From Candidatus Omnitrophota bacterium (GTDB lineage Bacteria > Omnitrophota > Gorgyraeia > Zapsychrales > Fredricksoniimonadaceae), in the NCBI GenBank assembly GCA_963828495.1, contig CAWHFJ010000017.1, positions 84,342 through 148,341 on the forward strand: 64,000 bases of DNA, in the 5' to 3' direction. The notes beneath the pieces were generated by a model. That model saw only the letters and a list, made by a program, of their open reading frames with translations. It had not been told where the DNA came from and did no database searches. Below are positions 4,915-64,000 of this stretch, piece by piece. Position numbers and translations under genes: made by a program. Position 1 is the stretch's first letter, and each line of letters begins with the position of its first letter.

Positions 4915-4948
4915 GAAAATCCCTGATTATTTTTTTATATAAAGAGAA

Positions 4949-4976
4949 TTGACATTAGAAAAATCAGAAGTAAGAT
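4949..4976 (+). promoter_or_regulatory. sigma70-like promoter (TTGACA-16-TAAGAT)
   Basis: TTGACA at 4949-4954 and TAAGAT at 4971-4976 with 16-nt spacing. A GAGGGAG Shine-Dalgarno precedes the ATG at 5025. Confidence 0.45.
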
Positions 4977-5024
4977 AAAAGTATAAAGATTTTTATTAAC
5001 AATTTTATCGATTGAGGGAGAAAT

Positions 5025-10388: not shown

Positions 10389-10416
10389 TAAAAAATAAGA
10401 AATAAACAGGTAAATA

Positions 10417-10467
10417 GGGACGTCTCCCATTTATTTAGATAAATGGAAGATGTCCTTATTTATTTTG
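10417..10467 (+). terminator. rho-independent terminator
   Basis: An 18-position stem (10417-10434 with 10439-10456; 17 paired including 2 G-U, 1 mismatch) followed by TATTTATTTTG. Confidence 0.6.
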
Positions 10468-21491: not shown

Positions 21492-22100
21492 ATGTCTAAC
21501 GCACAAATATTAGTCCCGATGGTCGTCGAAAAAACCAGTCATGGCGAACGCTCTTATGATATTTACTCCAGGCTTTTAAAAGAACGTATCGTTTTTTTGG
21601 GCATGGGTATCGATGATCATGTCGCCAATGTGGTAATCGCCCAACTTTTATTTTTACAATCTGAAGACAAAGAGAAGGACATCTTTTTGTATATCAACTC
21701 TCCGGGGGGTTCTGTGACCGCGGGGTTAGCGATTTATGATACGATCCAATATGTGAAACCGGATGTGGTCACCTGTTGTGTCGGTCAGGCCGCCAGTATG
21801 GGGGCTGTGTTGTTGACCGCCGGCGCCAAAGGCAAACGTTATGCGTTACCCAACGCACGCATCATGATCCATCAGCCTTGGGGAGGCGCACAGGGTACGG
21901 CCAGTGATATTTCCATACAGGCCGAGGAAATTTTACGGATGAAAGACGCAGTAAATAAAATTTTAGCCAATCACACAAATCAAGCATTGGAAAAAATAGT
22001 CAAAGACACCGACCGCGACTTCTTTATGTCCGCCCAAGAGGCGAAAGACTATGGTTTAGTCGACGGTGTCATCGCTCATTTCGGAGAAACTATAAAATGA
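21492..22100 (+). CDS. clpP: ATP-dependent Clp protease proteolytic subunit
   Basis: ERIVFLG...INSPGGSV...GQAASMG...MIHQP. Confidence 0.95.
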
Positions 22101-22148
22101 TTCTGACGCAATGTCAGAATCATCCTGAGCCTATAAGCGAAGGATCTT
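22098..22148 (+). repeat. intergenic hairpin-repeat element, copy 1 (starts at the clpP stop codon)
   Basis: TGA-TTCTGAC-GCAAT-GTCAGAA-T-CATCCTGAGCC-TATAA-GCGAAGGATCT. Confidence 0.6.
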
Positions 22149-22167
22149 ATACAGAAAGGTTAGAAAA

Positions 22168-23311
22168 ATGAAACGCAATTTGTTGTTAACTCCCGGCCCA
22201 ACTCAAGTACCTGCCAATCTGTGCGCGGCTTTAGGTAAGCCTATCATCCATCACCGCACGCCGCAATTTCAAAACAATATCAAACAGGTAGTGGAAGGTT
22301 TAAAAGATATCTTTCAGACTACCAATGACATTTATATTTTAACCTCTTCAGGTTCCGGCGGCATGGAAGCGGCCGTATCAAACCTGCTTTCCCCCAATGA
22401 TAAGGCCATTGCGGTCGATGGCGGAAAATTCGGCGAGCGCTGGGTGGAACTTTGCCAAACCTTTAAGGCTAATACGATTGTGTATAAGGTGGAATGGGGC
22501 AAAGCTCCCACTGCGGCAGAGATTAAATCGTTATTAAATGCCCATCCTGACACCAAGGCAGTATTTATCACCTTGGCAGAAACCTCGACAGGCGTGACTC
22601 CTGATGTCAAAGCTATCGGAGAGGTTGTTAAAAACACCCAGGCTGTTTTAGTGGTCGACGCGGTGTCGGGTCTGGCTGTTCAGGAAATTAAAACCGACGA
22701 GTGGCACTGCGATGTGGTGGTATCCGCCTCCCATAAGGGCCTGATGCTGCCGCCGGGCTTAAGTTTTGTCAGCGCCTCACCCAAAGCCATTGATTTGATC
22801 AATAAAAGCACAAACCCGCGTTACTATTTTGATTTGCGCGAATCCAAAAAGGCCATGGAAAAAATTGACACTCCTTTTACGCCGGCCATTGGCGTCCTTA
22901 TCGCTTTGGTGGACTCGCATCGAGATGATTAAAAAAGAGGGTCTTACCAATATGTTTGCCCGTTACGCGCTTTTAGCCCGTGCGGTACGTGCCGGCTGCA
23001 AGGCCATCGGCCTGGAATTATTTCCTGACCTTAGCTGTGCAACCAATGTGCTGACGGCCGTTAAGGTGCCTGCTAACATCGACGGAGAAAAGTTGACTAA
23101 AACCATGCGCGATACCTATGGCATTACTTTTGCCGGCGGACAAGACCTCCTTAAAGGTAAAGTCATCCGCATGGCGCATATGGGGGCCCTGGATGAATAT
23201 GATATTCTTACAGGACTGGCTTGCTTAGAAAAAGTCTTGCATCAAATGGGGCATAAATTTGAACTGGGCAGCGCATTAAGTGCCGCTCAAAAAGTTCTCA
23301 ACACAAATTGA
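22168..23311 (+). CDS. class V aminotransferase (serine-pyruvate / phosphoserine aminotransferase-like); one frame break near 22918
   Basis: LLTPGPTQVP...SHKGLMLPPG, then ...TPAIGVLIALVDS (frame 1) continues as IEMIKKEGL... (frame 2). Adjacent to serA. Confidence 0.75.
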
Positions 23312-23361
23312 CATCCGACGTAATGTCGGATGTCATCCTGAGCCAACTGGCGAAGGATCTC
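23309..23361 (+). repeat. intergenic hairpin-repeat element, copy 2 (starts at the aminotransferase stop codon)
   Basis: TGA-CATCCGAC-GTAAT-GTCGGATG-T-CATCCTGAGCC-AACTG-GCGAAGGATCT. Confidence 0.6.
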
Positions 23362-23379
23362 AATTAAAGGATTATAAAT

Positions 23380-24966
23380 ATGTTTAAGATTTTAGTTAGC
23401 GATAAATTGGAAAAAGAAGGCCTTGATATTTTAACGGCCGACGGCAACTTTACGGTCGATTGTAAATTCGGCATACCGCCGGATGAGTTAAAAAAAATCA
23501 TCAAGGATTATGATGCTTTAATCGTACGTTCCGGCACCCAGGTCACGGCAGAGATTATAGAGGCCGCGGATAAATTAAAAGTGATCGGACGCGCCGGGGT
23601 GGGGTTGGATAATGTGGATTTAATGGCCGCTACCCAAAAGGGGATTGTGGCCATGAACACCCCTGCGGGTAATACCACCTCTACCGCCGAGCATACCATG
23701 AGTATGATTATGGCCCTTTCACGCAATATCCCCCAGGCGGTTGCTTCCCTGAAATCCGGTAAGTGGGAGCGCTCCAAATTCACAGGGATTGAACTGCACG
23801 GCAAAATATTGGGCATTGTGGGTTTAGGCCGCATCGGTTCGACGGTCGCCAAGATGGCCCAGGCTTTCGGCATGGTCACTATCGGTTATGATCCTTATTT
23901 GTCCCTTGAAATTGCTGCTAAAAACGGTATCAAAATGGTTGAACTCAATGAAATTTATAAAACCGCGGATTATATCACGGTGCATATCCCGAAAACGGAT
24001 GAAACCACGCATATGATCTCCGCAGAACAAATAGCCTTGATGAAAAAAACGGTGAGGATCATCAATTGCGCCAGAGGCGGTATCGTCGACGAAGCCGCTT
24101 TGATTAAAGCTTTGCAGGAAAAACGTATTGCCGGTGCCGCTTTAGATGTTTATGAAACTGAACCGCCGGATTTTCAATCCCCATTGCTTAAATTAGATAA
24201 TTGTGTAGTGACACCGCATTTAGGGGCGTCCACCTCAGAGGCCCAGCTTAATGTGGCCATTGAAATTGCCAACGCCGTTAAAGATGCTTTGTCAGGTGCC
24301 GGCATACGCAATGCCGCCAATTTCCCGTCCTTGTCCGCCGAAGCTTTTAAAGCCATTGAACCGTACTTAAGTTTAGGGGAAAGTATGGGTAAATTTGCCG
24401 GCCAATTGGTACAGGGACGTATCCGGGAAGTGGTTATTACCTACAGCGGGGCCGTGGCCAAAGAGAAAGTGACGGCTGTAACCATGGCTTTAGCCAAAGG
24501 CATTTTGACACCGATATTAGAGGAAGGTGTAAATACTATTAATGCCTTGAATATGATGAAGGAACGCGGCATTAATATTAAAGAAATCATCTCCAGTGAG
24601 GAAGGCGAATATGTCAACGCGATTGCTTTGGATATAGCCACTGAAAAAGAACCCTTTTCTTTATTAGGGACTTTATCCAGCAATAAACAGCCGCGCATCG
24701 TTAAAATCAACAACGTTTATGTCGAAGCTTCACCTTCCGGGCATATGTTGTTTATCAATAATAATGATAAGCCCGGTATTGTGGGAGCTGTCGGTACGAT
24801 TTTGGCCTCGGCAAATATCAATATCGCCGGTATTACGTTAGGCCGCGAAAATGAGCAGAGAGTGGCGGTAAGTGTCGTTAATGTAGACAGCGAAATTCCT
24901 GAATCGGTCATTGAGAAATTACGCAAAACCAAGAATATTCTTTTTGTCAAAGCTATTAAAGTATAG
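23380..24966 (+). CDS. serA: D-3-phosphoglycerate dehydrogenase (long form with ACT domain)
   Basis: GLGRIGSTVA NAD-binding motif and a C-terminal ACT-like segment; 528 aa. Confidence 0.9.
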   Translation: MFKILVSDKLEKEGLDILTADGNFTVDCKFGIPPDELKKIIKDYDALIVRSGTQVTAEIIEAADKLKVIGRAGVGLDNVDLMAATQKGIVAMNTPAGNTTSTAEHTMSMIMALSRNIPQAVASLKSGKWERSKFTGIELHGKILGIVGLGRIGSTVAKMAQAFGMVTIGYDPYLSLEIAAKNGIKMVELNEIYKTADYITVHIPKTDETTHMISAEQIALMKKTVRIINCARGGIVDEAALIKALQEKRIAGAALDVYETEPPDFQSPLLKLDNCVVTPHLGASTSEAQLNVAIEIANAVKDALSGAGIRNAANFPSLSAEAFKAIEPYLSLGESMGKFAGQLVQGRIREVVITYSGAVAKEKVTAVTMALAKGILTPILEEGVNTINALNMMKERGINIKEIISSEEGEYVNAIALDIATEKEPFSLLGTLSSNKQPRIVKINNVYVEASPSGHMLFINNNDKPGIVGAVGTILASANINIAGITLGRENEQRVAVSVVNVDSEIPESVIEKLRKTKNILFVKAIKV

Positions 24967-36056: not shown

Positions 36057-38538
36057 ATGCATATAGCGGATTTAGCCAAAGAGTTAAAAATTACCGAAAG
36101 CTATGTTACAAAGAAAATCAAATCATTAAAACTGCGTTCTAAAGACAACGGCGAAATTACGGCTATTGTCGAAATGATTCTACGCGACGCTTTGGCGGAT
36201 GAAGGCATAGGCCAGCGTGTGGTCGAGGAACCCCCGCCGACTAAAAAATCCGTCAAAAAGACTACTACCCCTAAACCCAAGCCTACTGCGGCCAAGCCTA
36301 AAATAAAAACTGAAGAAGACAAAAAAGAGAAAAAAAAGCCGTCTGTCTCCAGAAAGAAAACAGCCCTGGAACCTGACGATGAGCCGCTGCCTAAAAAAGA
36401 GGCTCCCAAATCAATTTTACCCAAATCGGAAACTCCGAAAATTGAATCCGTGCCTCCCAGAAGATCGAACCCGTGCTTCCCAAGATTGAACCCGTGCATC
36501 CCAAAATTGAATCCGCGCTTCCCAAGATTGAACCCGTGCCTCCTAAACCGGTGATGCCGCAAATAGATGTTACCAAAATAGATATCCCCAAAGATATTCC
36601 GCCGCTGGAACCGCTCAAAAAGAAACTCCGTTATGATGAACCTTTTATATCGGTCAAGCCTTTAGCTAAAAAACGCAAACGGTCTTTTGAGGATACCGGC
36701 GGCTTAGGGCATGGACGGGACCATAAACCTTCTGCGTCTATTGCCGGTGCGGTCATTCCTGAAATACAACCTGCCGGACCGCTGGTAGATATTGAATTAC
36801 CTATTCCCATCAGCGTTAAAGATTTCGCCGTACATATCAATCAGAAGATGAATGTTGTGCTAAAGAAACTTCTGAACATGGGCGTATTTGCCAATATTAA
36901 CCAGAATCTGGGTGAAGAACTTGTCGGAAAATTAGCCAACTCTTTCGGCCTTAATGTCATTAAAAGCAAAACTCAGGAAGAAGAGCTCATCGATGTCCGC
37001 CAGCACAAAAAGATGATCCGGCTTCTTTAAAACCACGGGCACCGGTCGTCACCTTTATGGGCCATGTGGACCATGGTAAAACATCCCTGCTGGATAGTAT
37101 CCGTTCTGCCAAGGTCGCTGAAAGTGAACATGGGGGTATTACCCAGCATATCGGCGCTTATTTGGTAGCGACAGCCAACGGCAAAATTACATTTTTGGAT
37201 ACACCGGGTCATGAAGCTTTTACAGCCATGCGTGCCCGAGGTGCTCATATTACGGACATCGTGGTATTGGTCGTGGCTGCGGATGACGGTGTTATGCCTC
37301 AGACCCAGGAAGCCATTGCTCATGCCCGCGCGGCTAATGTGCCGATTGTCGTAGCCCTTAATAAAATAGATAAAAAAACCGCTGATCCTGACCGGGTTAA
37401 AAAACAGCTTTCCGAGCTTGATCTGATGTCAGAAGATTGGGGAGGGAAAATAGGGGTTGTGGAGGTATCTGCGCTGACAGGGAAGGGCATTGAAAAACTT
37501 CTGGACCGTATTTTACTGGAGGCGGAAATATTGGAATTAAAAGCCAATCCCGATAAAAAGGCATTAGGGATTGTCATTGAGGCCCATATGAGCAAGGGCA
37601 AGGGTGCCATTGCCTCTTTGATTGTGCAAAGCGGTACGTTGAACTTGTCGGATGCTCTTGTCATAGGCCCTCTGCATTGCAAAGTCAAGGCCATGTTTGA
37701 TGATCAGGGACGGCCTATCAAAGAAGCCGGACCGTCGACGCCTGTGGAAATTTTGGGGCTTTCCGAAGTCCCTGCAGCGGGTGAAATTTTTTACGCGGTA
37801 GAAGATGAAAAGACAGCCAAAGAAATCGCGGAGAACCGCCAGGAAAGATTAAAAAATGAGAAGCTTTCGGGCACGGCTAAAGTTTCTTTAGAAGAATTGT
37901 ATTCGCAAATTCAGCAAGGGGAAATCAAAGAACTGCGGGTCGTGATAAAAGGCGACGTGCAAGGCTCTCTGGAAGCGCTCAAAGAGTCACTGAGCAAAAT
38001 CCCCTCTGATGAAGTGAAATTACGTTTTATTCATACGGCGGTGGGGGATGTTAATGCTTCTGACGTGGTCTTGGCGCATGCCTCTAATGCCATTATCATT
38101 GCTTTTCAAGTGGGCGTTGATGATAAAGCCCGGCAGGAATTAGATAAAAATCCCGTAGATGTACGGGAGTACCGTATCATTTATGATGCTGTTGAAGATT
38201 TAAGAAAAGCCTTGGAGGGGTTACTCGCCCCCAAACTCAAGCGTCATTTCATCGGTCGTGTGGAAGTACGCAATGTGTTTAACTTAAGCCGTTCGGGGGT
38301 CGTAGCCGGTTGTTTTGTTCAAAAGGGCAAGGTCCGCAATAAAATTCAGGTTGAAGTTTTGCGCAACGGCGATGTTGTCCATACCGGGCATATCAGCACT
38401 TTGAAACGGTTTAAGGACGATGCCAAAGAAGTCACTGAAGGCTTTGAATGCGGGATTACAGTGTCCAATTTTGATACCATTGCTGTCGGGGACATCATTG
38501 AAGCGTTTGATATCGAATCCATTGCGCGCAAGCTATAA
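36057..38538 (+). CDS. infB: translation initiation factor IF-2; two frame breaks (36459-36460 and the A5 run 37007-37011)
   Basis: The N-terminal Lys/Pro-rich region (frame 3) continues through PKIEPVx repeats into frame 2, then [28 protein letters not shown]...DTPGHEAF...NKID in frame 1. Confidence 0.9.
36435..36541 (+). repeat. five tandem 21-nt (PKIE[PS][VA]x) repeats inside infB; unit 2 is 23 nt
   Basis: Units at 36435, 36456, 36479, 36500 and 36521. Unit 2 reads CCCAGAAGATCGAACCCGTGCTT, against CCCAAGATTGAACCCGTGCAT in its neighbours. Confidence 0.85.
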
Positions 38539-54640: not shown

Positions 54641-54680
54641 ATACGGCTCCGTTTAAAAAAACGGAGCCGTATTATTTTGA
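54641..54680 (+). terminator. rho-independent terminator
   Basis: A perfect 14-bp stem (ATACGGCTCCGTTT / AAACGGAGCCGTAT) with an A4 loop, then TATTTTG. Confidence 0.85.
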
Positions 54681-56131: not shown

Positions 56132-57325
56132 ATGAAAAAGTATGACTTTTTAATTATCGGTTCAGGCATCATCGGCTTGACACTCGCGCACGCCATCCAA
56201 AAACGTAAGCCCCAGGCCCGTATTTTAGTTTTAGATAAAGAAGCTGGGGAGGCTCAGCATGCTTCCGGCCGCAACAGCGGTGTTTTACACGCGGGTTTTT
56301 ATTATACGGCAGATAGTCTCAAAGCCAAGTTTACCGTTGACGGCAGCCGTGCCATGAAGGCCTATGTGAGATCCAAAAACCTGGCCATTAATGAATGCGG
56401 CAAATTAGTCGTGGCCCAAAATGAACATGAGTTAAAACAGTTAGACGAGCTTTTGGCCCGCGGCCAACACAATGGTTCCAATGTCCGTCTCATTAATGAA
56501 GCAGAAGTCCTGGAAATAGCCCCCAATGTCAAAACTTTCAAACGGGCCCTGTATTCTCCCAACACCGCCAGTGTAGACCCCCAAGAGGTCTGTCGTGTTC
56601 TTAAAGAAGATTTACTTCAAGCGGGTGTGACATTTTCTTTTAATACAAAATATTTAGGCCGCAGGGGGGATATTGTCAAAACCAATCAAGGCGATTTCCA
56701 GGCCGACAAAATCATTAATTGTGCCGGGCTTTATGCGGACCGTGTCGCTGCAGATTTTGGTTTCGGCTTAAAATACACCATGATCCCTTTCAAAGGTCTG
56801 TATTTAAAATATACCAAGAACACAACCGACATCAATATCAACGTTTATCCGGTGCCTAATTTAAATAATCCCTTTCTAGGCGTTCACTTCACGAAAACCG
56901 TGACAGGGGCAATTAAAATCGGTCCCACGGCCATTCCGGCATTCTGGCGGGAAAATTATAATTTACATCATGGATTTTCTGTTAATGAACTTGCGGAAAT
57001 CCTTTTTTTCGAATCCCAATTATATTGGAGTAATGCGTTTAATTTCCGTTTGCTGGCCCATGAAGAAATACATAAATACCACAGGCCCTATTTTGTTTCC
57101 CTGGCCGCAGCCATGGTCAAATCCATTGACCCCAAAGGTTTTACCGAATGGACCAAGCCCGGGATCAGGGCTCAGTTACTGGACAAAAAAACGCTGAGTC
57201 TTGTCCAGGATTTTGTGATAGAGGCAGATCGCAAAAGCGTCCATGTCCTTAATGCCGTATCTCCGGCGTTTACCTGTGCGTTCCCGTTTTCCCAATACGT
57301 GGTTGACCAGTATGTACTCATTTAA
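56132..57325 (+). CDS. FAD-dependent oxidoreductase, L-2-hydroxyglutarate oxidase (LhgO)-like
   Basis: YDFLIIGSGIIGLTLA (GxGxxG) and GRNSGVLHAGFYY. Confidence 0.7.
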   Translation: MKKYDFLIIGSGIIGLTLAHAIQKRKPQARILVLDKEAGEAQHASGRNSGVLHAGFYYTADSLKAKFTVDGSRAMKAYVRSKNLAINECGKLVVAQNEHELKQLDELLARGQHNGSNVRLINEAEVLEIAPNVKTFKRALYSPNTASVDPQEVCRVLKEDLLQAGVTFSFNTKYLGRRGDIVKTNQGDFQADKIINCAGLYADRVAADFGFGLKYTMIPFKGLYLKYTKNTTDININVYPVPNLNNPFLGVHFTKTVTGAIKIGPTAIPAFWRENYNLHHGFSVNELAEILFFESQLYWSNAFNFRLLAHEEIHKYHRPYFVSLAAAMVKSIDPKGFTEWTKPGIRAQLLDKKTLSLVQDFVIEADRKSVHVLNAVSPAFTCAFPFSQYVVDQYVLI

Positions 57326-58703
57326 AATTGCTTGCCGTTCGAGCCCCCTGGCTTGTTGCCAAGTCGATGAAGTCATTCAAAGCCTAAAAACTAAAGGCAT
57401 TGCGGTCAATTATGAAATCCTTAAATACGCAACTGCGGGTGACAAGGATAAGACCACACCATTAACGGCAAGCCCTGATAATTTTTTTACCGATGCCATT
57501 GATCAAGCCTTGCTGAATGGCAAGGCTGACATAGCCGTACACAGCGCCAAAGACCTGCCGCAAAATTGCCCCGAGGGTTTAGAAATCTTTGCCTTAACTC
57601 AATGCCTTGATAATAAAGACGCCTGGGTGGGACGCAAGTCCTGGAGCCAATTAGGACCCCAGCCCCAAGTCGGCACCAGCAGCCTTTTGCGTCAACAACA
57701 AATTCTGCAATTACGTCCGGATGTCCGTATCGTGCCTATACGCGGCAGCATCGCTGAGCGTCTAGCGTTGGTTAAGACAGGCCAAGTTGACGGTATTGTA
57801 GTGGCTGTCTGCGCGCTGAAACGCCTCAAACTTGGAAGGCAGATCAAAGATATTTTTCCCTGGGAAGGGCAGCCTCTGCAAGGGCAATTGGCTGTGGTAG
57901 GCCGCAAAAATGATCAGGAATTAAGAAATTTATTTAGTATTATTGATGTGCGCCGCGCCAAAATACTTTTGCATTGCGGTACGCACCCGGAAATGTATAA
58001 CCATTTGGGTCAAATTATCCATTGGCCTATGATTGACATCAAGCCCGTAGCCTTCAATGGGCCTTGCCAAAAACAACTCCTGCAAGCCTTGGAAATGGCA
58101 GACATCATTATATTCACCAGCGGGTTTGCCGTTGAACATTTTTTCCATGTTATTGCGAAGCCTACTTCCAGTGTCATTGCGAGCGACGGTTCTTCCAGTG
58201 TCATTGCGAGCGACGGTTCTTCCAGTGTCATTGCGAGCGAAGCGAAGCAATCTCTTAAAGAACGATTTAAAGACAAAATCTTTGCCGTCATAGGCCAACA
58301 AACTAAGAGAGCATTACAAAAATTCAATATTGAAGCCCTCATTGTTCCCCAGGAAGAAACAGCCCAAGGACTTTGTCAAGCTATAACCAAGCATATGAAC
58401 GTAGAGGGTCGACATATTTTGTTGCCACGCTCATCAGTGCCTAATCCGTTTTTAAAAGAGGCTTTATCTACTCTCGGCGCCATCGTCACAGAAATCACTG
58501 TGTACGCAAATACCAAGCCTGCCCAACGTCCTTTACCGGACTTGAATATTACGGGAGTCATTTTTACAAGCCCCTCAACAGTGCGGAATTTTTTAATAGA
58601 TTATGCTACAATACCCGAACATTGGCACATCCTGGCCCGTGGTCCGGTGACTTTAAAAGTTTTACAAGACAAAGGGTATCCTCATGCCACATCGTTATCG
58701 TAG
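57312..58703 (+). CDS. fusion of porphobilinogen deaminase (HemC domains 1-2 only) with uroporphyrinogen-III synthase (HemD)
   Basis: HemC-like: FKIACRSSPLA...ADIAVHSAKDLP...GTSSLLRQ...RGSIAERL...PLQGQLAV. This runs straight into HemD-like sequence (KILLHCGTHPEMY...IIIFTSGFAV...GVIFTSPSTV). Confidence 0.75.
   Translation: MYSFKIACRSSPLACCQVDEVIQSLKTKGIAVNYEILKYATAGDKDKTTPLTASPDNFFTDAIDQALLNGKADIAVHSAKDLPQNCPEGLEIFALTQCLDNKDAWVGRKSWSQLGPQPQVGTSSLLRQQQILQLRPDVRIVPIRGSIAERLALVKTGQVDGIVVAVCALKRLKLGRQIKDIFPWEGQPLQGQLAVVGRKNDQELRNLFSIIDVRRAKILLHCGTHPEMYNHLGQIIHWPMIDIKPVAFNGPCQKQLLQALEMADIIIFTSGFAVEHFFHVIAKPTSSVIASDGSSSVIASDGSSSVIASEAKQSLKERFKDKIFAVIGQQTKRALQKFNIEALIVPQEETAQGLCQAITKHMNVEGRHILLPRSSVPNPFLKEALSTLGAIVTEITVYANTKPAQRPLPDLNITGVIFTSPSTVRNFLIDYATIPEHWHILARGPVTLKVLQDKGYPHATSLS
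58166..58254 (+). repeat. in-frame 27-nt tandem repeat (2.8 units) ending in a GTCATTGCGAGCGAAGCGAAGCAATCTC element, inside the hemD-like half
   Basis: TTCCAGTGTCATTGCGAGCGACGGTTC occurs at 58166 and 58193. The third unit (58220) switches after ...GCGAGCGA to AGCGAAGCAATCTC. Translation: SSVIASDGS SSVIASDGS SSVIASEAKQSL. Confidence 0.9.
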
Positions 58704-63093: not shown

Positions 63094-64000
63094 ATGAAAC
63101 GACACAATTTACATGCGGGGTTGGTCCTCATAGGAGGATTATTATTAAGCACCGGCGTTTATGCACAGACAGCCCAAGACTATTTTCACAATGGCAACGC
63201 CTATAACAGGCAAGGCAAATTATCTCAAGCCATTGTTGAGTTTACCAAAGCCATTGCCATCAATCCCAACTTTGCCAAGGCCTATAATGACCGGGGGGTC
63301 GCTTATGCTAAGCAAGGCCAATTGGCCAAAGCCATCGCTGACTACACCAAGGCCATTGACATCAATCCTAAAGATGTAGCGGCCTATAACAACCGCGGCA
63401 ATGCCTACAACATGCAGGGCAATCTACCCAAAGCCATTGCTGATTTTACCAAAGCTATCCAAATAAAGCCTGACTATGCAGGGGCCTATAACAACCGCGG
63501 GAATACCTACAATATGCAAGCCAACTGGCCTCAAGCCATTGCTGATTTTTCTAAAGCCATTGACCTAAACCCTAATGTGGCCGGAGCCTATCATAACCGG
63601 GGGAATGTCTACTACAAGCAAGGCAATTGGCCTCAAGCCATTGCTGATTTTACCAAAGCCATTACTTTAAAACCCAATTTAAAAGAGGCCTATATAAGTC
63701 GGGGGCTTGTCTATTACAGGCAAGGCATGTGGCCTCAAGCCATTTTTGACTTTACCAAAGCCATTGAAATAAACCCTAATATGGCAGAGGCTTATGGCAA
63801 CCGAGGCAATGCCTTCTTCAAGGAAGGTAATTTATCCCAAGCTATTGCCGACTATACGAGGGTCATTGCCATTAATCCTCTCTATGCAAGGATTTATAAC
63901 AACCGTGGGCTGGCCTATTATAGTGCCAAAAACTACGCCAAAGCTTGGGCCGATGTGCATCAAGCAGAAAAATTAGGGAGTCCTGTTAACGGTGACTTTA
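63094..64000 (+). CDS. secreted TPR-repeat protein, 3'-truncated by the window edge
   Basis: Absent from the ORF track because no stop occurs before 64000. ATG 63094, signal peptide ending VYA-Q, then at least 8 consecutive 34-aa TPR units (A.YNNRGNAY...G....AIADFTKAI.I.P). Confidence 0.8.
   Translation, partial: MKRHNLHAGLVLIGGLLLSTGVYAQTAQDYFHNGNAYNRQGKLSQAIVEFTKAIAINPNFAKAYNDRGVAYAKQGQLAKAIADYTKAIDINPKDVAAYNNRGNAYNMQGNLPKAIADFTKAIQIKPDYAGAYNNRGNTYNMQANWPQAIADFSKAIDLNPNVAGAYHNRGNVYYKQGNWPQAIADFTKAITLKPNLKEAYISRGLVYYRQGMWPQAIFDFTKAIEINPNMAEAYGNRGNAFFKEGNLSQAIADYTRVIAINPLYARIYNNRGLAYYSAKNYAKAWADVHQAEKLGSPVNGDF

Follow-up and report, generated by a model that had tools for sequence, protein, structure and literature searches.

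A double-hairpin repeat supplying the stop codons of clpP and an aminotransferase gene in Candidatus Omnitrophota, and its fit to the CGTC-tagged REP superfamily

Introduction

The stretch of DNA analysed here, 64,000 nt from a Candidatus Omnitrophota bacterium (assembly GCA_963828495.1, contig CAWHFJ010000017.1, positions 84,342 to 148,341 of the forward strand; hereafter the window), carries two copies of a double-hairpin element, one at the end of clpP and the other at the end of the class V aminotransferase (AT) gene downstream. In each copy a perfect hairpin, hairpin 1, starts with the stop codon of the upstream gene and is followed directly by a second, imperfect hairpin, here called the module. 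What is an element that ends two neighbouring genes, how did it come to lie there, and does its position on both sides of the AT gene mean anything? An earlier reading of the letters alone (the sequence-only reading) had laid its emphasis on this bracketing, had left the function undescribed and had listed a repeat resembling the repetitive extragenic palindromes (REPs) as one option among several. It is argued below that the composite of hairpin 1 and module is a family of its own, that its module fits the CGTC-tagged superfamily of REPs, and that both copies reached the operon by insertion.

Results

Two composite copies in the window

The two copies have the following parts; positions are those of the window, and tag and tail denote the short stretches 5' and 3' of the module stem.

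22098-22148, + strand: copy 1, whole extent
22098-22122, + strand: copy 1, hairpin 1, TGATTCTGAC / GTCAGAATCA, perfect 10-bp stem, loop GCAAT
22098-22100, + strand: copy 1, TGA, the first three bases of hairpin 1 and the stop codon of clpP
22121-22147, + strand: copy 1, core of the REP module, CATCCTGAGCC-TATAA-GCGAAGGATCT
22118-22148, + strand: copy 1, module with tag and tail: tag AATC (a variant of YGTC), ATCCT, tandem GA, GC(C), loop TATAA, GC, GA, AGGAT, tail CTT
23309-23361, + strand: copy 2, whole extent
23309-23335, + strand: copy 2, hairpin 1, TGACATCCGAC / GTCGGATGTCA, perfect 11-bp stem, loop GTAAT
23309-23311, + strand: copy 2, TGA, the stop codon of the AT gene
23334-23360, + strand: copy 2, core of the REP module, directly after hairpin 1
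23331-23361, + strand: copy 2, module with tag and tail: tag TGTC, ATCCT, GA, GCC, loop AACT, GGC, GA, AGGAT, tail CTC

Sequence, architecture and abutment to the stop codon were in both cases exactly as the sequence-only reading had described them. The module has the common layout CATCCTGAGCC-N4-5-GCGAAGGATCT, lies directly 3' of hairpin 1 and pairs through five Watson-Crick pairs, the first two of them A-T and T-A, two sheared G.A pairs and a further two or three Watson-Crick pairs, closed by loops of 4-6 nt. Its two exact 11-mers each occur twice in the 64-kb window, in the same mutual arrangement, against a calculated chance expectation of about 0.03 for an exact 11-mer in 128 kb (both strands); hairpin 1 taken alone has no other repeat within the window. 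As RNA, copy 1 folds with -21 kcal/mol (z = -4.4) and copy 2 with -29.4 kcal/mol (z = -6.2), and none of 200 shuffles folded as well. The downstream genes begin 19-20 nt past each copy, about 70 nt past the TGA. The whole window gave no match to the Rfam covariance models at the gathering score, and with a relaxed E-value the region 22000-23450 gave solely a chance-level match to AgrB (E = 0.6).

A family of composite hairpins

A scan of metagenomes with the pattern GACGYAATGTC-N5-6-CATCCTGAGC returned 47 loci; in all, 43-46 copies of the composite were found in metagenomes, the host of which is probably Omnitrophota. The copies share one layout: an A-rich flank, TGA, C or T, three to four variable bases, GAC-GTAAT-GTC, the complement of the variable bases, G or A, and finally TCATCCTGAGCC-AACT-GGCGAAGGATCT. 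When 41 distinct copies were aligned, 97% of the cells were paired, and changes on both sides were found at five of the 11 pairs of hairpin 1, one of which appears as UA in 15 copies, CG in 12, AU in 7 and GC in 3. The observed covariation was reached by none of 500 shuffles, and pairing fell to 26-43% when the partner was slid by 1-3 columns. A covariance model built from this alignment, as the sequence-only reading had proposed, found five further full copies that the search pattern could not have forced, and these contain new compensatory variants (AAC...GTT in place of GAC...GTC, other loops, and an ATCCC/GGGAT module stem). Compensatory change in the first stem, which had been suggested from the two window copies, is thus upheld by 41 metagenome copies and five model-found ones. 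The composite forms a separate family whose hairpin 1 has undergone strong compensatory change.

At the foot of hairpin 1 the pairs T-A, G-C and A-T are invariant, with the TCA of the tag as their 3' partners. The composite begins with TGA because these three bases are the complement of the conserved tag (TGAC...GTCA). The position relative to stop codons had likewise been proposed for counting. For 31 of 44 copies an open reading frame (ORF) of at least 60 codons ends, in frame, at the initial TGA, corresponding to 26 of 38 independent sites, and most of the remaining copies have a long ORF ending 3-14 nt upstream. A downstream long ORF always lies on the same strand and starts 53-113 nt past the TGA, and among the 44 copies none is in the opposite orientation to the operon. 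At least six composite copies are accompanied by an inverted ATTCT-type partner 13-14 nt downstream; the window copies are single.

Insertion among relatives

The genes adjoining the window copies, and the spacers between their counterparts in three element-free relatives, are as follows.

21492-22100, + strand: clpP; its stop is the first triplet of copy 1
22168-23311, + strand: AT gene, split by an extra C at 22918; copy 2 begins with its stop codon
23380-24966, + strand: serA (phosphoglycerate dehydrogenase); its start is 19 nt after copy 2
L295: AT 97% identical to the window; clpP-AT spacer 31 nt; AT-serA spacer 37 nt
L296: AT 86% identical to the window; clpP-AT spacer 26 nt; AT-serA spacer 14 nt
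L297: AT 87% identical to the window; clpP-AT spacer 22 nt; AT-serA spacer 11 nt

The tig-clpP-AT-serA block is syntenic in relatives. In L295, L296 and L297 clpP and AT end at the same residue, with TAA stops and no element; in the window both spacers are 67-68 nt long and the stop is the element's own TGA. Among other relatives, L249 (proteins 87-90% identical) has the composite at the clpP|AT junction only, and L251 has it at tig|clpP only, a junction that is empty in the window. Since the elements are absent or differently placed in close relatives with the same gene order, this comparison of sequences indicates that the two window copies are recent insertions, that the copy within hemC-hemD described below is an insertion as well, and that they do not form the boundaries of a cassette. 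The same gene order without elements, or with other junctions filled, also removes any special meaning from the bracketing that had been emphasised: synteny with a single element or none points to two separate insertions into one operon, and we infer that their standing on both sides of the AT gene is a coincidence of independent events. Absence from the nearest relatives further means that the element is not needed for the operon.

With regard to a target-site duplication, the sequence (C)TAA follows GGATCT in 15 of 43 composite copies, and copy 2 may retain an ancestral TAAAGG right after the element; divergence of the flanks leaves the boundaries undefined, and no duplication is claimed.

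Some further observations concern these genes and junctions. In the clpP|AT composite of L249 (about 4937-5023, reverse strand) hairpin 1 is retained together with the module's 5' half. In place of the 3' half stands ...GGCCCAATTGCTTCG..., a sequence that includes, as its reverse complement, the 3' arm of the ATTGC variant; this copy may be rearranged or hybrid. The AT gene of the window appears as two ORFs, 22168-22932 and 22829-23311, through the one extra C at 22918 (GACTCGCATCG vs GACTCGATCG). It is intact, with 380 aa, in four same-species Logan contigs (99.6-100% identical), and a 254-aa fragment is also on record from the source contig (P0240), the frameshift being either an assembly error or a strain-specific pseudogene. 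Two Logan contigs (L001 and L003), from independent short-read assemblies, end exactly at the last base of copy 2 (window 23360, ...GCGAAGGATCT), a break that repetition of the module within the sample would lead one to expect.

The wider module family

The sequence-only reading had stated that the core recurs in many metagenome-assembled genomes (MAGs), and at least 120 loci were indeed listed in each of two scans, one of viral contigs with the stem arms left free and one of a single genome per species for the ATCCT/AGGAT variant. All counts of members, loops and dimers given in this section cover the matches listed in the scans. The module consensus reads YGTC, AT-NNN, GA, a GC-rich stem-loop, GA(A), N'N'N'-AT, and C plus 2 nt. 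The four bases 5' of the stem are YGTC in 450 of 484 members (TGTC 340, CGTC 110). Where the arms were unconstrained the stem covaries: TCT is answered by AGA in 40 of 43 cases, CCC by GGG in 11 of 12, TCC by GGA in 9 of 9, GCT by AGC in 8 of 8 and TTC by GAA in 5 of 5, the exceptions being mostly T.G wobbles. The tail is mostly CTC, in part because one search pattern contained ATCT. The apical loop, most commonly of 3 nt, is GNA (GAA, GCA, GTA or GGA) in 175 of the 211 cases of the form GC-NNN-GC. We take a GC-GNA-GC apex, together with GA mismatches in a Y-GA-R context, to be an unusually stable DNA mini-hairpin.

About half of 491 members have a partner at most 250 nt away. Dimers with the tags outside (82) outnumber those with the tags inside (23), and their spacers are mostly 10-45 nt. 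Single copies point in the same direction as the adjoining long ORFs about twice as often as in the opposite one, by crude ORF calls. Many loci carry tandem partial copies of the 5' half before a full copy, as does hemC-hemD in the window.

By record titles, the genome matches listed belong to MAGs and isolates of at least 16 phyla, and the viral scan adds phage contigs. The groups among them are Chloroflexota, Acidobacteriota, Bacteroidota (including Hymenobacter isolates), Bacillota, Planctomycetota, Omnitrophota, two groups of the candidate phyla radiation, Cyanobacteriota, Pseudomonadota, Gemmatimonadota, Nitrospirota, Nitrospinota, Bdellovibrionota, Fibrobacterota, Verrucomicrobiota and one "delta proteobacterium". 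The module is also found on plasmids of cultured Novosphingobium, Methylobacterium, Methylosinus and Nostocales, and one replicon of Novosphingobium has at least 40 places with it. In the literature, the DNA strings of the element matched chance primers only and its peptide strings matched nothing. Peptides of the kind VILSEAKDL and LRFARND had been named as products of such strings in spurious ORFs, and the window itself yields RLLRFARND, DCFASLAMT and SVIASEAKQS.

The arrangement in phages deserves separate mention. About 37 of the viral loci listed belong to one phage group with portal, major head and other structural genes (e.g. L006, L010, L014, L017, L041, L045), in which the ATTGC variant lies between many structural genes, often as several co-oriented copies per contig (e.g. 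L007, L080, L118). One viral contig has four copies of the element, each of 33 bp, head to tail (L022:2695-2819), and another locus has three copies 238 nt apart inside a longer repeat (L103:442-944); clustered arrangements thus exist besides single copies and dimers.

A third copy within hemC-hemD

A third occurrence of the core inside hemD, with a complementary ATTGC/GCAAT stem, had been noticed from the letters and proved real; the tandem units that precede it are newly seen.

57243-58703, + strand: hemC-hemD fusion ORF; contains copy 3 in frame, translated VIASEAKQS
58149-58226, + strand: tandem partial units before copy 3, one diverged 24-nt unit and two identical 27-nt units, all in frame
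58227-58254, + strand: copy 3, REP module GTCATTGCGAGCGAAGCGAAGCAATCTC; ATTGC/GCAAT variant with a GC-GAA-GC mini-hairpin, without hairpin 1, tag TGTC

The identical 27-nt units occupy 58173-58199 and 58200-58226, and the diverged, older 24-nt unit 58149-58172. Each partial unit consists of the 5' half of the element (GTCATTGCGAGCGA) and 13 nt of flank, and a perfect 27-bp tandem repeat of the 5' half of copy 3 plus flank runs through 58165-58240 (2.8 copies). The array is present in the source; a homologue of 82% identity has three units, one of 76% identity has the first, diverged unit only, and most other homologues have no array. Orthologues of hemCD thus show four, three or one units, or other variants of the family in frame, and in-frame copies in the hemCD linker were found in the window and in L299, L301 and L302. 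This linker is either an insertion hot spot or merely the sole tolerant place. In the hemD linker of L301 (1501-2913) lies a 72-nt in-frame head-head (HH) heterodimer, tags outward, of an ATCCT and an ATTCT variant; L302 (1501-2823) has a single in-frame 27-nt copy there, and a single CGTCATCCTGAGCTAAACGAAGGATCT stands in one of the two variant-bearing homologues.

Relation to known repeats

Depending on whether the unpaired tag at their end reads GTAG or CGTC, two superfamilies of REPs have been told apart (Di Nocera, De Gregorio and Rocco, BMC Genomics 2013, PMC3733652), and the comparison made here is with the definition in the text of that survey. The CGTC REPs carry the tag CGTC, also TGTC or CCTC, complementary A and T at stem positions 1-2, a stem of 8-9 bp, a loop of 4-5 nt and a short unpaired tail with the consensus CCA. 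HH dimers, with the tags outside, predominate and tail-tail (TT) dimers are rare; copies lie near the 3' ends of ORFs or in frame within genes, are unevenly spread among close relatives and have no associated transposase in the survey's text. The superfamily includes dRS3 of Neisseria and RPE-4/RPE-6 of Rickettsia, and five phyla and four families, CGTC-1 to CGTC-4, were given for it in 2013 (PMC3733652).

Judged against this definition, the module fits as a member of the CGTC-tagged superfamily. It shares the tag, which is TGTC in window copies 2 and 3 and AATC in copy 1, and all three window copies have a stem of the form AT...AT, as in the first two stem positions of CGTC REPs; in the wider sets this AT start was part of the search patterns and is hence not independent evidence. 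A short tail is present as well, though mostly CTC and not CCA. Also shared are the size of about 25-30 nt, the placement mostly after ORFs, the unevenness among close relatives, the predominance of HH dimers, heterodimers included, with spacers of 20-100 nt or shorter, the in-frame intragenic copies adding about nine residues (20-30 for dimers) and, here as a weak negative, the want of a dedicated adjoining transposase. Novosphingobium copies with the exact sequence of copy 3 are HH dimers and have a CCA-type tail (CCAG). "REP-like repeat" was therefore the right option among those offered earlier, by way of the match to the published definition (PMC3733652), and the module can no longer be called undescribed. 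Among the departures from the survey's description are the spread over at least 16 phyla and phage contigs as against five phyla, the frequency of partial tandem copies of the 5' half, and the extra 5' hairpin of the Omnitrophota copies, which begins with TGA and usually serves as the stop codon. The composite of hairpin 1 and module that supplies the upstream stop codon is, with respect to that text, a form new to CGTC REPs.

With the GTAG-tagged REPs, including BIMEs and REPINs (E. coli, Pseudomonas), the elements have in common imperfect hairpins with a tag, inverted doublets that can fold into a single long hairpin, and placement just past stop codons. GTAG REPs are largely species- or genus-specific in sequence, whereas the present family has nearly the same sequence across phyla; it further differs in having YGTC in place of GTAG (GTRG) and no REP-associated tyrosine transposase (RAYT) in the loci examined. 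GTAG termini often provide a TAG stop (PMC3733652), and both kinds share proposed effects on mRNA stabilisation and, within 15 nt of a stop codon, on ribosome stalling (cited in PMC12306157). The Rickettsia palindromic elements (RPE) are alike in their in-frame insertions into housekeeping proteins at permissive linkers, here the hemC-hemD linker of several lineages; RPE-4 and RPE-6 are themselves CGTC REPs according to the survey (PMC3733652), which makes this an overlap and not a separate kind, and RPE-1 is longer.

Very small hairpin repeats are also known from Nostoc, and the present core occurs on Nostocales plasmids. The small dispersed repeats (SDR) of Nostoc, on which Elhai et al. reported in 2008, are said to be mobile hairpin repeats of 21-27 nt for which no enzyme is known. 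The REP of Nostoc punctiforme that has been described with its RAYT has a different sequence, GTTGGGTTTCGTTCCTCAACCCAAC. A bacterial selenocysteine insertion sequence (SECIS) was rejected: the frame stops again right after the TGA (TGA TTC TGA in copy 1; TGA CAT CCG ACG TAA in copy 2), and the homologues end at the same residue, with TAA.

Searches for a mobilising enzyme

In 13,038 ORFs, taken from about 2.3 Mb of loci that bear the element, E. coli RayT found no match (phmmer, E at most 10). Of ten ORFs of 124-175 aa with inverted elements on either side, one matched a HicB-like antitoxin in Pfam and none a Y1_Tnp or other transposase. An all-against-all BLASTP comparison of 1,778 called genes returned, as recurrent neighbours, only phage portal, major head and tape-measure modules, which are common to about 37 related viral contigs. 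These negatives carry little weight, since each genome would hold just one copy of such a gene; the 2013 survey, in its text, also reports no transposase associated with CGTC repeats (PMC3733652).

Other repeats in the window

Several repeats of the window lie apart from the element. A tandem repeat at 36433-36547 has a 21-nt unit (CTCCCAAAATTGAACCCGTGC; 5.4 copies, 78% match) and also a period of 42 nt. Six copies of a 102-nt unit (69% match) fill 63199-63814, up to the window end, and the unit length equals that of a 34-residue repeat such as the tetratricopeptide repeat (TPR). Two strong inverted repeats, both unrelated in sequence to the element, were found at 10411-10462 (24-nt arms, 88% complementary, 4-nt gap) and at 54641-54672 (perfect 14-nt arms, 4-nt gap).

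Discussion

Taken as a whole, the data are best explained by copies of a CGTC-tagged REP, here fused to a hairpin that supplies the stop codon, which inserted as mobile repeats and which, once transcribed as a double hairpin, act on mRNA or on termination; we give this explanation a probability of roughly 0.75. The copies would have spread as non-autonomous mobile DNA, probably via a single-stranded hairpin form. Their placement at stop codons could reflect targeting. It could also arise if only those insertions survive that leave the upstream protein with its proper end, as the built-in TGA makes possible. Lying between co-transcribed genes, the element would be transcribed and would fold into two adjacent stable hairpins starting from the stop codon. 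E. coli REPs shield upstream mRNA from 3' exonucleases, and by analogy the hairpins may block such enzymes and stabilise the upstream segment of the message. A hairpin within 15 nt of a stop codon might also obstruct the ribosome during termination, with the result that expression of the upstream gene is lowered or tuned, as REPs at this distance are reported to stall ribosomes (cited in PMC12306157). By these analogies an action on mRNA stability or translation termination is the likely role.

Several points weigh against this explanation. The orientation of the wider family relative to genes is only about 2:1, which implies that the family as a whole is under no constraint to function as RNA in a single direction; the RNA-level effects are argued by analogy only. 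With regard to membership among the CGTC REPs of the survey's text, the stem is broken by two G.A pairs and reaches 8-9 bp only if these are counted, the commonest loop is a 3-nt GNA and not one of 4-5 nt, the tail is mostly CTC and not CCA, and the tag, which is defined as unpaired, is paired inside hairpin 1 in the composite. Finally, the clpP|AT junction is filled in the window and in the more distant L249 and is empty in the closest relative, L295, a pattern that calls for two independent insertions at one site or for a precise loss.

The alternative that survives best is that the composite is chiefly a selected cis-acting RNA device, an intercistronic structure that couples termination of upstream translation to mRNA processing, decay or downstream translation, with the ribosome melting hairpin 1. 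It would accommodate well that all 44 copies are co-oriented with the operon and that the 13 copies not supplying the stop either follow a stop codon within about 14 nt or precede an ORF. The T-G-A/T-C-A pairs stay invariant while neighbouring pairs co-vary freely, orthologous copies differ by compensatory pairs (L253 vs L278; L269 vs L274), and in module stems G.T wobbles exceed C.A mismatches. The invariance of the TGA is, however, equally explained by its pairing with the conserved tag GTCA, and the co-orientation could come from stop-codon-directed insertion followed by purifying selection. Moreover, absence at the same junctions in the closest relatives, with other junctions of the same operon filled in other lineages, shows that such a device is not required for the operon to function. 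Selection on the RNA as the chief explanation is thus possible but doubtful.

A more specific scenario would combine insertion with an RNA function. The composite would be a stop-codon-seeking element that carries TGA in its own hairpin and is inserted, inside operons, between the last sense codon and the native stop, the element having no transposase of its own; it would then act as a termination-coupled RNA switch, and the near-identity of the family over at least 16 phyla and phages would stem from some conserved activity, of host or phage, that recognises a single-stranded DNA mini-hairpin with tandem G.A pairs. As a whole this scenario is speculative, and we think it improbable.

Strict REPINs, moved by a RAYT or another Y1 enzyme of the IS200/IS605 type acting on the single-stranded hairpin with the tag as guide or target, would match the format of a 4-nt tag 5' of an imperfect hairpin and of inverted doublets 10-45 nt apart. 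The GC-GNA-GC loop and tandem G.A pairs, which presumably stabilise the hairpin in DNA, would also point to a single-stranded DNA form. Against this stand the tag, YGTC and not GTAG, the absence of a transposase for CGTC repeats from the text of the 2013 survey (PMC3733652), and the weak negatives of the RayT and Y1_Tnp searches described above, and such an origin appears quite unlikely.

That the hairpins are transcription terminators, either forward ones lacking a U-tract or antisense ones using the T-rich minus-strand run after hairpin 1, is less probable still. A consensus scan calls both hairpins terminator-like, on the minus strand only, and nearly all copies have an A-rich 5' flank. At clpP|AT, however, this flank is coding sequence and is present without the element too (clpP of L295 ends ...ATT AAG TAA). 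On the + strand no U-tract or T-run follows either hairpin, in line with the earlier view that these are not canonical intrinsic terminators; the next gene begins only 19-20 nt past the window copies, the operon is tightly packed in relatives, and a terminator has no need of the conserved module. Although a single gene does lie between direct repeats of a structured site, and each repeat directly follows an ORF in that ORF's orientation, recombination sites that, like integron attC, delimit a mobile gene cassette are hardly conceivable, given that the AT gene is in the same place in L295, L296, L297 and L249 with one element or none, that the sequence is devoid of RYYYAAC/GTTRRRY core sites, that the window ORFs examined include no integrase and that other copies adjoin unrelated housekeeping genes.

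The explanation preferred here, a mobile CGTC-tagged REP fused to a stop-supplying hairpin, bears on more than one operon. It identifies the source of a recurrent nuisance in annotation, the peptides VILSEAKDL, VIASEAKQS, RLLRFARND and DCFASLAMT that appear in spurious ORFs and in real proteins, and assemblies break at copies of this repeat family. A little-studied REP superfamily is extended from the five phyla of the survey's text to at least 16 phyla and phage genomes, and a variant is added to it in which the upstream gene takes its stop codon from the element itself. Should the association with stop codons reflect targeting or function, the composite would offer a simple natural system for the study of hairpins at termination codons and of the mobility of DNA elements shorter than 60 nt.

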